Shown here: in pieces, positions 8,302 to 55,177 of the stretch
Layout: each line of letters starts with the position of its first letter
Numbering within the stretch: the first letter of the stretch is position 1
Assembly (NCBI RefSeq): GCF_056746865.1
Contig: NZ_CM163382.1
DNA: 64,000 nt
Direction: 5' to 3' (one strand)
Program-made: the position numbers and the translations under genes
The notes under the pieces: generated by a model
Database searches by the model: none
Told to the model about the DNA's origin: nothing
Seen by the model: only the letters and a program-made list of their open reading frames with translations

Positions 8302-9097
8302 GGTTCTCTCCAGCTTTAGTGTCGTTTTGTGTAGGGCAAAAACGAATGACATTCGTTAAATTAATCGGAAAACAAAGCATTACCTTTTAACTAAAAGATA
8401 AGTGACTGTGTTGACATAGTTTTAGCGAGAAATTAATTCTCCATAGGAGAGCAATATCACATCGCAGAATTACAGTGAGAACGTGCATAAATTTAGCGGG
8501 AAAAGACATAAGGGAAAGCCAATTTGTCAGACAAATTGTCGAATGCACAGCAGATTAATCCATAAGATTAGCCTGGAAATCCTTGTTGTCTTTGGTACCC
8601 ATGCGGGATGTCTTCTTTTTAACCAGTCAATAGGCCGCATTACCTGGCGTTGAGTTTTTGAAATGGTGTAATAACCGCAACTCAAAGATGTGGAAAATGC
8701 ACGTCATTCATTTCGTCATTAATTATCACTGTGCTCATTAATTAACAGAACACGTATAATGAGAGCCATCTCGCAAAAATGAAAAAACGTTTTATAAAAT
8801 CATCACTTCATCATGAATTCAAATTCATTGATTAATATCAACAAGATACAAAAAGCACTATCATTAAAATTCATTGCAGTTACATTGATTTCATCAATGA
8901 AATGTAAAAATATATAAACTTGATGATTTAAGCATTTTCTTATACCCGTTCAGACGTTATTCTTATTTCAGATCATCGTCAGAATTGACTCCACGATCAC
9001 ATTTCGGACCGGCAGAAAGGAATTATTCTGCAAACAGTAATTATGGTGTTTTGATTTATCTTGCACCTCTCCACTTCTGGATATAAGGATATTAGGT

Positions 9098-9601
9098 ATG
9101 GCAACCGCTGGAATGCTTCTCAAACTCAACTCTCAAATGAACCGCGAGTTTTACGCATCCAATCTCTACCTTCACCTGAGTAACTGGTGTTCTGAACAGA
9201 GTCTGAACGGCACCGCCACTTTCCTTCGCGCCCAGGCACAGAGTAATGTGACCCAAATGATGCGCATGTTTAACTTTATGAAGAGTGTCGGCGCTACCCC
9301 CATCGTTAAAGCCATTGATGTTCCCGGTGAAAAACTGAACTCTCTGGAAGAACTGTTCCAAAAAACGATGGAAGAATACGAGCAACGTTCTAGTACGTTG
9401 GCACAGTTAGCCGATGAAGCGAAAGAACTGAATGATGATTCAACCGTCAATTTCCTGCGCGATCTGGAAAAAGAACAGCAGCATGATGGTCTGTTGCTGC
9501 AAACCATTCTTGATGAAGTGCGCAGTGCGAAACTTGCGGGTATGTGCCCTGTGCAGACCGACCAACATGTTCTGAATGTCGTGTCACACCAGCTGCATTG
9601 A
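9098..9601 (+). CDS. ftnB: Ferritin-like protein FtnB
   Basis: 167 aa ORF with ferritin fold, paralogous to the ftnA product downstream. Confidence 0.88.
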
Positions 9602-9647
9602 TCATCATCGGCGCTAATGCATTGCGCCGATGAAGGTTTTGAGAAAC

Positions 9648-9684
9648 CGCTGCCTCATCTGTTTGAAGCAGCGGTTTTTTTAAT
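9648..9684 (+). terminator. Rho-independent terminator after ftnB
   Basis: Inverted repeat ccgctgc...gcagcgg followed by ttttttta. Confidence 0.6.
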
Positions 9685-9931
9685 GGGATTCACCCTGTGG
9701 GGTAAACTTGAGTTCAATAAGCGCGATGGCTTTTTGGATTGCCCGCATGGTGACCGGGTCTGCGGCGGCGGGATGGTTAGTAAAGTCGATATTCTTCAGC
9801 TGACTGGACATTTTTTCACGAACTTCAACGGGCGCGATTACATCGAGAACATCCAGAATTTGTTTGATAACCAACTGGCAAGCAACCACATCAGAAACCA
9901 GTTCCTGATCGGCATTCAGCGGCTGGGACAT
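9680..9931 (-). CDS. yecJ: Uncharacterized protein YecJ
   Basis: 83 aa [23 protein letters not shown]... recognised as YecJ. Confidence 0.85.
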
Positions 9932-10012
9932 CGTAAACTCCTGATAGCATTTTGAAAGCCGTTATAGTAGCGGCTTCACATCTTCAGCGATAGTCACATC
10001 CACCGTCATCAG

Positions 10013-10045
10013 GACACAAAAAAACCTGCCGGAGCAGGTTTTTTG
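10013..10045 (-). terminator. Rho-independent terminator downstream of azuC
   Basis: aaaaaaaacctgccggagcaggttttttgtt: hairpin flanked by A-run and T-run (bidirectional in form). Confidence 0.65.
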
Positions 10046-10132
10046 TTATCGGAACATATTGCCTGGCGGTACGTCTTTGAACGTCTTGCAATAGTTATTG
10101 AACATACTTTTCAGTATTTTGCGCAGTTTCAT
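10046..10132 (-). CDS. azuC: Small protein AzuC (28 aa), carried on the IsrB/AzuCR small RNA
   Basis: Minus-strand translation by hand: MKLRKILKSMFNNYCKTFKDVPPGNMFR then stop. Below the ORF-track length cutoff. Confidence 0.8.
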   Translation of the reverse strand: MKLRKILKSMFNNYCKTFKDVPPGNMFR

Positions 10133-10394
10133 CGCGGCACTCCGACCATTTGTTATACAGGTGTTATTGTCTTTGCACTTATAATATGACAACCATCACA
10201 AAAATCAATCTTTATGTGATGTGAATCACATAAATACCCCTTTAATGTTATAAAAATGATAATCAAAAAGCAGCTACCCCATTTCTGACACCTACAGATG
10301 GCAAGAAATAGCGCCTGCCAGGCGTCTTTTCCGGCCATTGTCGCAGCGCTGTAACGCGTAAAATAGTGCTTTCTTTTACTCTTCTGGCTGGACC

Positions 10395-10718
10395 ATGAGA
10401 CTTCTGATTCTGACTCTTTCATTAATAACGCTGGCGGGGTGTACGGTTACTCGCCAGGCCCATGTGAGCGAAGTTGACGCGGCAACAGGTATTGTACGGT
10501 TGGTTTATGACCAGGCTTTTTTGCAGCATGCCCGTACCGATCGTTATGTCAGTCGCGGGATCGCCGATCGCGCATGCCAGCAGGAAGGCTATACCCACGC
10601 TATCCCCTTTGGTCAGCCAGTAGGCAACTGTAGCCTTTTTGCGGGTTCCTTATGTTTAAATACGGAATTCACTTTGTCATATCAGTGCCATCATTCCGCC
10701 TTCCCTGTCTTTCTCTAA
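10395..10718 (+). CDS. yecR: Lipoprotein YecR
   Basis: 107 aa ORF with lipoprotein signal MRLLILTLSLITLAGC. Confidence 0.85.
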   Translation: MRLLILTLSLITLAGCTVTRQAHVSEVDAATGIVRLVYDQAFLQHARTDRYVSRGIADRACQQEGYTHAIPFGQPVGNCSLFAGSLCLNTEFTLSYQCHHSAFPVFL

Positions 10719-10889
10719 ATGTTTTAATCAGCGAGGGGGATCTTCGCTGATTAAATAAATAGCGGTAATGCGTTTTATTCCCATTCGTATTTTTAATAAA
10801 TGAAGTTTATATTTTACCTTTTGCAAATAATAAAATAACAAATTATAGTGACGCCACAGCAACAAATATAACCTTTGTGGAGCACTATC

Positions 10890-11387
10890 ATGCTGAAACC
10901 AGAAATGATTGAAAAACTTAATGAGCAGATGAACCTGGAACTGTACTCTTCACTGCTTTATCAGCAAATGAGCGCCTGGTGCAGCTATCATACCTTCGAA
11001 GGTGCTGCCGCGTTCCTGCGCCGCCACGCCCAGGAAGAGATGACACATATGCAGCGTCTGTTTGATTACCTGACTGATACCGGAAACTTACCACGTATTA
11101 ATACCGTTGAATCTCCGTTTGCTGAATATTCTTCACTTGATGAATTATTCCAGGAAACCTATAAACACGAACAATTAATCACGCAGAAAATTAACGAACT
11201 GGCTCATGCTGCAATGACCAATCAGGACTACCCAACATTTAATTTCCTGCAATGGTATGTTTCTGAGCAGCATGAAGAAGAGAAACTGTTCAAATCGATT
11301 ATTGATAAATTAAGCCTGGCAGGCAAAAGCGGCGAAGGTCTGTATTTTATCGACAAAGAACTCTCTACCCTCGACACACAAAACTAA
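10890..11387 (+). CDS. ftnA: Ferritin FtnA
   Basis: ORF 10875-11387; start trimmed to [21 protein letters not shown] (165 aa). Confidence 0.93.
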
Positions 11388-11424
11388 TGCTCTCAGGCGG
11401 CAGGTTTTCTGCCGCCGTTTCAAA

Positions 11425-11664
11425 TCAGTGACGGCAAATCTTACTCTGATCGGTCGAAAAACCTTCTTCTGAAGGTATAAATTTGCCTTTTGCTGCCAGA
11501 AACGCCACCAGCTCTCCCGCAGTCATCCCTTCTGCCGAGCAGGTGTGAAAACGTGCCTGTTCACCAAAACGCGCTTTAATTGCTGCTTCCAGACTGGCAT
11601 GCGTATATTGCTCGCCTGATTCAATCATCATATTTAACACTTCATGACCGTGAATAGAGTCCAT
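11425..11664 (-). CDS. yecH: Uncharacterized protein YecH
   Basis: 79 aa ORF MDSIHGHEVLNMMIESGEQY...; convergent with ftnA. Confidence 0.85.
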   Translation of the reverse strand: MDSIHGHEVLNMMIESGEQYTHASLEAAIKARFGEQARFHTCSAEGMTAGELVAFLAAKGKFIPSEEGFSTDQSKICRH

Positions 11665-13987: not shown

Positions 13988-14074
13988 TGGTACCCGGAGC
14001 GGGACTTGAACCCGCACAGCGCGAACGCCGAGGGATTTTAAATCCCTTGTGTCTACCGATTCCACCATCCGGGC
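13988..14074 (-). tRNA. leuZ: tRNA-Leu (anticodon UAA)
   Basis: Reverse complement matches tRNA-Leu GCCCGGATGGTGGAATCGGTAGACACAAGGGATTTAAAATCCCTCGGCGTTCGCGCTGTGCGGGTTCAAGTCCCGCTCCGGGTACCA. Confidence 0.95.
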
Positions 14075-14086
14075 TCGGGAAGAAAG

Positions 14087-14160
14087 TGGAGGCGCGTTCC
14101 GGAGTCGAACCGGACTAGACGGATTTGCAATCCGCTACATAACCGCTTTGTTAACGCGCC
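14087..14160 (-). tRNA. cysT: tRNA-Cys (anticodon GCA)
   Basis: Reverse complement matches GGCGCGTTAACAAAGCGGTTATGTAGCGGATTGCAAATCCGTCTAGTCCGGTTCGACTCCGGAACGCGCCTCCA. Confidence 0.95.
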
Positions 14161-14213
14161 AAATTCTTCAGGCCTTTCAGCCAGACATCCGCTGACGCCG
14201 ATGTCTTTTAAAC

Positions 14214-14289
<76 letters not shown>

Positions 14290-24138: not shown

Positions 24139-24238
24139 GCCGGATGCGGCGTAAACGCCTTATCTGGCCTACAAAAATGTGCAAATTCAATAAATTGCAA
24201 TTCAACTTGTAGGCCTGATAAGCGCAGCGCATCAGGCA
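24139..24238. repeat. Pair of inverted REP elements (BIME) in the fliC 3' region
   Basis: gccggatgcggcgtaaacgccttatctggcctac and gtaggcctgataagcgcagcgcatcaggca are classic REP palindromes in opposite orientation. Confidence 0.75.
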
Positions 24239-46597: not shown

Positions 46598-46684
46598 AAA
46601 TCCCGACCCTGAGGGGGTCGGGATGAAACTTGCTTAAGCAAGAAGCACTTAAAAAATTCGTTACACCAGGAAATCTGATGTGTT
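46598..46684 (-). ncRNA. dsrA: DsrA small regulatory RNA
   Basis: Reverse complement matches DsrA: AACACATCAGATTTCCTGGTGTAACGAATTTTTTAAGTGCTTCTTGCTTAAGCAAGTTTCATCCCGACCCCCTCAGGGTCGGGATTT. Confidence 0.93.
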
Positions 46685-54939: not shown

Positions 54940-55086
54940 GACTCAATCATTTTTTGAACAAATAGATAAATTTTGCGCAACGGCAGTGAATACAGGAAAA
55001 ATCGTTTTGAGCGATTTTATTTATCTTTGATATCGGCTTTATTAATTCATTTAATCAATATATTAGCACTGATTACAATTATACCT

Positions 55087-55177
55087 TTTTATTATTCTGT
55101 GTCATGATGCTTCCGTTATTAGCCTTTTATCGTCTTGTTTATATTTTTTGGGCCGGCATGATGCCGGCTTTTTTTTA
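55087..55177 (+). ncRNA. rseX: Candidate small RNA ending in an orphan terminator (position expected for RseX)
   Basis: Hairpin ggccggcatgatgccggc plus T8 at 55151-55177 with no plus-strand CDS upstream; RseX is known to lie between yedR and the yedS porin gene. 5' end not determined. Confidence 0.4.

Follow-up and report, generated by a model that had tools for sequence, protein, structure and literature searches.

The locus between yecJ and yecR is the chromosomal azuCR gene (older names isrB and IS092) of Escherichia coli, which specifies a dual-function RNA. We put the probability of this identification at about 95%, and no evidence contradicting it was found. The gene is already well studied (PMC8915982, PMC12266141 and PMC12612679 provide the literature behind both the identification and the role), so that its identification in the 64-kb window, by which we mean the whole stretch of DNA analysed, is an ordinary finding and nothing new. 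An initial annotation of the window had named the azuC/IsrB (AzuCR) arrangement, and the name is borne out by a curated protein family model, by an exact match to the E. coli protein and by the presence of azuR and azuC at the orthologous place in K-12. That the same RNA encodes a small protein and base-pairs with other RNAs, as the annotation also held, is established experimentally in K-12 (PMC8915982). The strain would be expected to behave like K-12.

The 28-residue open reading frame is present on the minus strand exactly as the annotation described it, from an ATG at 10132-10130 to a TAA at 10048-10046, and its product is MKLRKILKSMFNNYCKTFKDVPPGNMFR. The list of open reading frames shows it as the C-terminal portion of a 48-aa, TTG-started frame (10046..10192). 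This in-frame upstream extension was used as a carrier in the search for AzuC homologues and is not proposed as a real protein. The product matches the NCBIfam model NF033642, "stress response protein AzuC", over profile positions 1-26 of 26 with 75.9 bits (E 1.3e-21), the model being an equivalog with a cutoff of 30, and it is the exact UniProt AZUC_ECOLI sequence. A local Pfam-A scan of the 28-aa peptide gave no match despite the precomputed assignment of PF28150 to every AzuC match in a large protein collection, most likely because the library versions differ. The peptide has a net charge of +6 and a muH of 0.53-0.60 over residues 1-20 (p ~0.01 against shuffles), and the amphipathic moment of 0.55 over residues 1-21 is reached by 0.6% of shuffles. 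The predicted amphipathic, cationic helix is consistent with membrane association. AzuC is described in the literature as a membrane peptide in K-12, where it binds and activates GlpD (PMC8915982).

The neighbours of azuC are ftnB, yecJ (DUF2766), yecR and ftnA. Between yecJ and yecR the curated K-12 record holds the ncRNA azuR (b4434, 1987843-1988001) and the CDS azuC (b4663, 1987873-1987959) on the same strand. The window aligns with K-12 without indels, and 163 of the 164 transcript bases are identical; codon 6 is ATA here and ATC in K-12, a synonymous change at 10115. Upstream of the transcript, a T stands at -3 (10177) where K-12 has C, and the spacer of the distal CRP/FNR site carries three consecutive changes (10221-10223; TTCACA here, TTTGTA in K-12). 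None of these differences touches a known functional residue. Common to the window and the K-12 azuCR gene (Raina et al. 2022 PNAS) are the order yecJ-azuC-yecR-ftnA, the strand logic, the promoter hexamers, both CRP-type half-site pairs, the FnrS site, the Shine-Dalgarno sequence, the peptide, the pairing segment and the terminator (Table 1).

When a 401-nt region around azuC was used as a query, strain 504838 was 100% identical, and azuC was found to be annotated at the locus in 5,419 of 5,426 complete E. coli genomes. Nearly all matching complete E. coli genomes carry a single chromosomal copy. A plasmid search revealed no mobile copy of azuC; its seven matches lie in records of 0.39-4.9 Mb, which look like chromosomal sequence filed as plasmids.

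Table 1. Features of the azuCR locus, in window coordinates
Feature	Position	Strand	Basis and remarks
AzuCR (IsrB/IS092) transcript, 164 nt	10011..10174	-	K-12 start 1988001 (PMC8915982) and RefSeq azuR feature, via indel-free alignment
azuC CDS, 28 codons and TAA	10046..10132	-	reading frame, NF033642, dN/dS
Shine-Dalgarno sequence GGAG	10140..10143	-	7 nt upstream of ATG; read from sequence; conserved in nearly all genera
FnrS pairing site CACCUGU	10157..10163	-	AzuCR nt 12-18; 25-31 nt upstream of the ORF, position as in PMC8915982
AzuR base-pairing segment, AzuCR nt 81-114	10061..10094	-	inside codons 13-24; duplex prediction against K-12 targets
Intrinsic terminator: A-tract, CCUGC/GCAGG core, UCCG loop, 7-U run	10018..10044	-	folding, conservation
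-10 hexamer TATTAT	10181..10186	-	promoter scan; invariant across genera; 6 nt upstream of mapped start
-35 hexamer TTGATT, 16-nt spacer	10203..10208	-	promoter scan; nearly invariant across genera
Predicted proximal CRP-type site TGTGATGGTTGTCATA	10185..10200	-	centred at -18.5, overlaps -10; one mismatch to TGTGA-N6-TCACA
Predicted distal CRP-type site TGTGATTCACATCACA	10215..10230	-	centred at -48.5; perfect TGTGA-N6-TCACA match; overlaps published FNR and PhoP sites
Published FNR sites, K-12 1988039-1988058	10212-10231	-	coordinate transfer (PMC12266141)
Published PhoP site, K-12 1988046-1988063	10219-10236	-	coordinate transfer (PMC12266141)
Published NarP repressor site, K-12 1988060-1988076	10233..10249	-	coordinate transfer, indel-free alignment (PMC12266141)

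Transfer of K-12 coordinates places the 5′ end of the transcript at 10174. The 3′ end given by RefSeq for K-12 corresponds to 10016, and a length of 164 nt leads to about 10011; in K-12 the RNA is detected as a discrete species of 164 nt (PMC8915982). The clean hairpin terminator that the initial annotation placed directly after the reading frame is found there, beginning two bases past the azuC stop codon. It is composed of AAAAAACCUGC (10044-10034), the loop UCCG (10033-10030), GCAGGUUUUUU (10029-19) and one further U, and reads as a whole AAAAAACCUGC-UCCG-GCAGGUUUUUUU (10044-10018). Its predicted folding energy is -17.7 kcal/mol, against -5.4 +/- 2.1 kcal/mol for dinucleotide shuffles (z = -5.8), and none of 200 shuffles was as stable. 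A simple terminator scan did not list this hairpin, probably because the T-run is absorbed into the A/T-extended stem, and it was direct folding that revealed it.

A search of the whole window against Rfam 15 at the gathering score returned no family at the locus, and the Rfam check for IsrB suggested in the annotation came back without a match, Rfam 15 having no model for AzuCR. The Rfam family that carries the name isrB is an unrelated Salmonella island sRNA. With E values up to 1, the region 9000-11500 gave only sub-threshold, terminator-driven matches to STnc370 (33.4 and 27 bits against 54) and rsmX (23.4 against 56). Membership of STnc370 (RF02064), the best Rfam match, is rejected at 27-33 bits against a gathering score of 54; the resemblance is confined to the terminator hairpin AAAAAACCUGC...GCAGGUUUUUU, and both strands match because the terminator is symmetrical.

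The promoter region contains two CRP-type sites. The distal one is among only three perfect consensus matches in the 64 kb, and when up to one mismatch is allowed the window holds six sites, two of them in the azuC promoter. Between genera, the half-sites of both operators are kept and the six bases at the centre drift, as is expected of a site bound by a dimer. The position of the predicted proximal site fits repression, and both predicted CRP sites and CRP-mediated repression of azuCR have been reported in K-12 (PMC8915982). A 2025 study mutationally tested FNR, PhoP and NarP repressor sites within K-12 1988039-1988076 (PMC12266141). This range corresponds to 10212-10249 of the window and overlaps the distal CRP-type site; the NarP site lies at the edge of the block conserved across genera, where conservation is weak. 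The range assigned to the locus in the annotation, 10013-10200, covers the transcript, the -10 hexamer and the proximal CRP-like site, and stops short of the -35 hexamer (10208-10203) and of the distal CRP/FNR-type site (10230-10215).

A reading frame of 28 codons is by itself within the range of chance, as 40 ORFs of 20 aa or more overlap the 2.5 kb around it. This abundance, together with the first description of the RNA as the non-coding candidate IS092 (PMC8915982), is what could be said for a purely non-coding sRNA (IsrB) in which the frame is a chance ORF. To examine the frame across species, one genome per species (GTDB r220) was scanned with codons 1-10 back-translated and all synonymous codons allowed. 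There were 59 matches, of which 56 are Enterobacteriaceae loci from 18 named genera. The other three (Treponema, Doudnabacteria and Tatlockia) have unrelated continuations and are attributed to chance. All 56 Enterobacteriaceae loci continue as (F/W)xxYCxTFKDVPP(G/A)xMF, and in all of them the frame stops after 27 or 28 codons, the codons past the tenth being unconstrained by the scan. Loss of the 28-codon frame in related genomes was the observation that the initial annotation had set as the refutation of its reading, and the frame proves to be kept throughout.

The pattern of substitution is that of a coding sequence. Over codons 11-27, the column entropies sum to 1.59, 4.54 and 16.47 at codon positions 1, 2 and 3, respectively. 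In the same codons of 57 sequences, the pooled pairwise pS is 0.58 and pN 0.089, corresponding to a dN/dS of 0.086. Among the alternative frames, +1 is never open and +2 is open in 19 of 57 sequences. In 55 of 57 the antisense frame in register is open, which is expected, since an antisense stop would arise only from a sense TTA, CTA or TCA codon. This pattern indicates that the azuC frame is under strong purifying selection as a protein. The reality of the ORF follows from this cross-genus selection together with the match to NF033642 and the annotation of azuC in nearly all complete E. coli genomes; for K-12, detection of SPA-tagged AzuC and ribosome-profiling support are cited in PMC8915982. 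The selection pattern excludes a purely non-coding RNA, and with the strictly conserved frame length in all 56 species and the curated equivalog match we give that reading practically no credence.

AzuC orthologues are found in Citrobacter, the Klebsiella oxytoca group, Raoultella, Enterobacter, Leclercia, Lelliottia, Cedecea, Buttiauxella, Franconibacter, Siccibacter and other genera. These loci have in common with E. coli the core MKLRKILKSM(F/W)xxYCxTFKDVPP(G/A)xMF, a promoter with two CRP-type sites, the CACCTGC and GGAG motifs and a near-identical terminator. They differ in encoding 27 residues rather than 28, a difference of one base: most genera read TTC-TGA-TAA where Escherichia has TTC-CGA/AGA-TAA. 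They also differ at wobble bases of the segment that serves for pairing in E. coli. In addition, most of these loci have two genes between yecR and azuC that Escherichia lacks, one for an MFS transporter and one that is RpiB/LacAB-like. The block conserved across genera extends from about 10232 to 10013, with sharp ends at the distal CRP site and at the terminator, and contains the two CRP-type sites, the -35 and -10 hexamers, the FnrS pairing site, the Shine-Dalgarno sequence, the ORF and the terminator. All 57 loci have the terminator (CCTGC/GCAGG core in 56, 7-T run in 53), and in Intestinirhabdus alba it has a different, self-complementary stem, a compensated variant.

The arrangement of a short ORF and a terminator on the same strand as yecJ could also, or instead, be read as a leader-peptide attenuator of that gene. 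yecJ lies downstream on the same strand in 53 of the 56 loci, including most of those outside Escherichia, and within 160-225 nt of the azuC ATG in 49. In 51 of 57 loci only 6-10 nt separate the stop codon from the terminator's GC core, a distance at which a terminating ribosome could mask the 5′ arm; the 3′ arm is then predicted to find a partner in the CACCUGU motif of the 5′ UTR. However, in six loci the spacer between stop codon and stem is 19-22 nt, azuC contains no run of regulatory codons, and consensus folding of 26 orthologues did not reveal a covarying antiterminator helix. The terminator, with its seven U residues, is strong, and a discrete 164-nt RNA is known. A conserved -10-like motif, TACTATAA, at 9969-9962 suggests a separate yecJ promoter, and a literature search found no paper linking yecJ expression to azuC. 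We regard attenuation of yecJ as very improbable, and treat the terminator as the end of the azuCR transcript.

Three pairing interactions known from K-12 were examined by predicting duplexes between the AzuCR allele of the window and the K-12 fnrS, cadA and galE sequences. The CACCUGU site in the 5′ UTR is complementary, with one G.U pair, to the 5′ end of K-12 FnrS (GCAGGUG). The energy of this duplex, a 7-bp seed, is indistinguishable from that of shuffles (z 0.11). Support for the site comes from its conservation across genera, most of which read CACCTGC, and not from energy. In K-12, FnrS represses azuC translation by pairing 25-31 nt upstream of the ORF (PMC8915982).

The AzuR segment, by comparison with published data, surrounds the pairing core of nt 89-107, or about 10068-10086 (preprint 10.1101/2021.04.27.441574). 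It is identical to K-12. Nucleotides 81-114 are predicted to pair with positions -15 to +19 of K-12 cadA, which include the ribosome-binding site and start codon, at -32.6 kcal/mol (z -3.9 against shuffles), and with positions +713 to +743 of K-12 galE, well inside the gene's coding region, at -33.2 kcal/mol (z -2.6). The window allele thus keeps the predicted cadA and galE pairing as published. In K-12, AzuR represses cadA and galE by direct pairing, and compensatory mutations restore the regulation (PMC8915982). Both ProQ and Hfq co-immunoprecipitate the RNA (PMC8915982), and ProQ matters more than Hfq for regulation by AzuR; the location of the pairing region inside the ORF causes translation and pairing to interfere with each other (PMC8915982; preprint 10.1101/2021.04.27.441574).

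Across genera, synonymous divergence in the AzuR pairing segment (codons 17-23) is no lower than elsewhere in the ORF (pS 0.60). The lowest value, 0.30, is found in codons 2-10 and may stem from initiation-region constraints or from a bias towards optimal codons ending in C. In place of the E. coli sequence TAT TGC AAG ACG TTC, most genera have TAC TGC AAA ACC TTC, and so lack TTGCAA and AACGTT, the motifs behind the long cadA duplex. When 26 orthologous transcripts were folded to a consensus, the terminator and weak helices were all that emerged; beyond the invariant terminator, 0 of 26 pairs were compensatory and the covariation term was -0.39 kcal/mol. Among the matches listed in a search for CadA homologues (at least 120 clusters at 90% identity, with one representative name each), the only genera named are Escherichia and genera without an azuC match (Salmonella, Edwardsiella, Atlantibacter and others). 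The genera named in the closest listed CadA clusters overlap the azuC-bearing genera only at Escherichia, a weak indication with one name per 90% cluster.

These data are what could be expected if the transcript were a small-protein mRNA only, with the pairing to cadA and galE a weak, overexpression-dependent or Escherichia-specific side effect. Coding explains all of the cross-genus conservation inside the transcript body, as seen in the low dN/dS and in the drift of third positions. The undiminished synonymous divergence of the pairing segment, the loss of the two palindromes of the long cadA duplex in most genera and the lack of covariation-supported structure point in the same direction. 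Furthermore, the published repression of targets comes from plasmid overexpression experiments, in which a stop-codon mutant repressed more strongly (PMC8915982). Against such a reading stand the compensatory mutations, which restored regulation of both cadA and galE, the binding of the RNA by ProQ and Hfq, and the higher expression of cadA-gfp in an azuCR deletion strain (PMC8915982). The pairing segment in the window is, moreover, identical to that of K-12, with good predicted pairing. We therefore consider an exclusively coding role unlikely and retain the dual-function reading for E. coli. What the comparative data independently confirm is the role as an mRNA and its regulation, not the AzuR role, which rests on the K-12 experiments.

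The AzuR role may be lineage-restricted. The freely drifting synonymous sites in the pairing segment imply that the riboregulator may be younger than the peptide. It is possible, at what we would call somewhat less than even odds and on indirect evidence, that much of the Enterobacteriaceae inherited the AzuC peptide, its CRP/FNR-type control, the FnrS site and the terminator from a common ancestor, and that the pairing of AzuR with cadA, and in part with galE, was acquired later in the Escherichia lineage from synonymous positions of the coding sequence.

Taken with the K-12 literature, the features of the window suggest the following course of events. The sigma-70 promoter (TTGATT/TATTAT) would start an RNA of about 164 nt at 10174, and cAMP-CRP, bound at the sites that flank and overlap this promoter, would shut it off when glucose is absent. 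The FNR, PhoP and NarP sites overlapping the distal site would add repression under anaerobic and cation-related conditions. Transcription would end at the strong intrinsic terminator two bases past the stop codon. Ribosomes loading at GGAG would make the cationic (+6), amphipathic AzuC of 28 residues, unless the anaerobic sRNA FnrS paired with CACCUGU in the 5′ UTR and blocked translation. As AzuR, the stretch of the coding sequence at about nt 81-114 would pair with the cadA ribosome-binding region and at an internal site of galE and lower the expression of both, helped more by ProQ than by Hfq. Translation and base pairing would compete, because the pairing stretch lies inside the ORF.

AzuCR is one of few characterized dual-function RNAs of E. 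coli and is part of the curated K-12 annotation. In SgrS/SgrT and Spot 42/SpfP of E. coli and VcdRP of Vibrio cholerae, one small transcript likewise provides a small protein and pairs with mRNAs in connection with carbon metabolism, and Spot 42 and VcdRP are CRP-repressed, as is AzuCR. None of these RNAs has a sequence relationship to AzuCR. They also differ in layout: the pairing region of AzuCR lies inside the ORF, such that its two functions compete directly, whereas the two functions of SgrS and of VcdRP are separate (PMC8915982).

In the PGAP record of the matching strain, the azuC CDS is listed and no RNA gene is given. Genomes annotated by pipeline miss the AzuCR RNA gene because Rfam 15 has no model for it, and the 56 loci collected here are enough for the seed alignment of such a model. 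The same loci offer a first handle on the evolution of the coding and base-pairing roles, a question left by Raina et al.: conservation of the coding role and of its regulation is wide, and the pairing segment is without extra constraint outside Escherichia.

Outside Escherichia, the last residue of AzuC, Arg-28 (codon at window 10049-10051), occurs only in a MAG of Pluralibacter and in a single strain of Citrobacter amalonaticus. Codon 28 is TGA in other genera, usually with TAA directly after it, so that a single base change gains or loses the terminal arginine. At the opposite end of the frame, cross-genus synonymous divergence (pS) in codons 2-10 (window 10103-10129) is 0.30, half the value of approximately 0.58 in codons 11-27. 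This low divergence is not an artefact of the search by which the loci were found, since the pattern for codons 1-10 admitted every synonymous codon. Constraint on the initiation region, selection for optimal codons, or an unrecognised pairing site are all possible explanations. A 48-aa ORF on the opposite strand (window 10043-10189, +) is open in the azuC register in 55 of 57 species. Its openness was ruled out as evidence for an antisense gene, because antisense stops would require TTA, CTA or TCA in the sense frame and the open frame is thus a by-product of the azuC sense codons.

Within the distal operator, the CRP-type site that overlaps the published FNR and PhoP sites, three adjacent bases of the central spacer (window 10221-10223) differ from those of K-12 (TTCACA versus TTTGTA). 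Both half-sites are intact despite this change. Only 484 of 5,419 E. coli genomes match the 401-nt region around azuC at ≥99% identity, and the spacer variant may therefore be a minority allele. The same query was unmatched in 7 of 5,426 E. coli genomes, and the top-matching record contains it at two places. Just 18% of the query was matched in E. coli O157:H7 strain Vac_07.1, where the azuC locus may therefore be disrupted or rearranged.

Variation is also found in the 5′ UTR that pairs with the anaerobic sRNA FnrS. Escherichia albertii NBRC 107761 has CAGATAT in place of the FnrS motif CACCTG(C/T), a substitution which suggests that this strain has lost FnrS control of azuC. The motif is deviant in Siccibacter and Franconibacter as well. 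In the window, CACCUGU (10157-10163) is complementary both to FnrS and to GCAGGU in the 3′ arm of the terminator (10019-10029), and when the 5′ arm of the terminator is masked, the predicted fold joins the 5′ UTR to the 3′ arm. The complementarity between these two parts of the transcript may well be a coincidence.

For the matching strain (NZ_CP025856.1), PGAP records the azuC CDS alone over window 10011-10174, with no ncRNA feature, and Rfam 15 contains no AzuCR/IsrB model. In the same assembly amyA, fliT, fliS and the flagellin gene are marked as frameshifted; these marks may reflect assembly indel errors. Precomputed Pfam assignments place PF28150 on every AzuC match in a large protein collection, and a local Pfam-A scan of the AzuC peptide returned zero families, a discrepancy that is probably a difference in library version. 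Other RNA genes in the 64-kb window, called at the Rfam gathering score, are listed with the neighbouring genes in the table.

Features of the window and of the yecR-azuC interval
Feature	Coordinates	Strand	Remarks
yecJ (DUF2766)	window 9680-9931	same as azuC	downstream of azuC
DsrA	window 46598-46684	-
RseX	window 55086-55175	+
ES036/CssrF	window 24175-24216	+
Three tRNAs	window 13991-14289	-	Leu, Cys and Gly in the matching record's annotation
yecR-azuC segment	6971-9113 of the Citrobacter sedlakii locus		comparable spacing in most non-Escherichia loci

On its downstream side, azuC is tightly linked to yecJ. In 53 of the 56 Enterobacteriaceae loci azuC is followed by yecJ on the same strand, and in 49 yecJ lies 160-225 nt from the azuC ATG. 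A possible -10 element of yecJ's own is TACTATAA, a conserved motif that lies at window 9969-9962. Upstream, the yecR-azuC gap is approximately 2.3 kb longer in most non-Escherichia genera, owing to a segment absent from Escherichia that encodes an MFS transporter (474 aa, PF07690) and an RpiB/LacAB-like sugar-phosphate isomerase (225 aa, PF02502 and DUF3666). Because AzuCR is linked to carbon metabolism, this association of azuC with a transporter and an isomerase may be meaningful.
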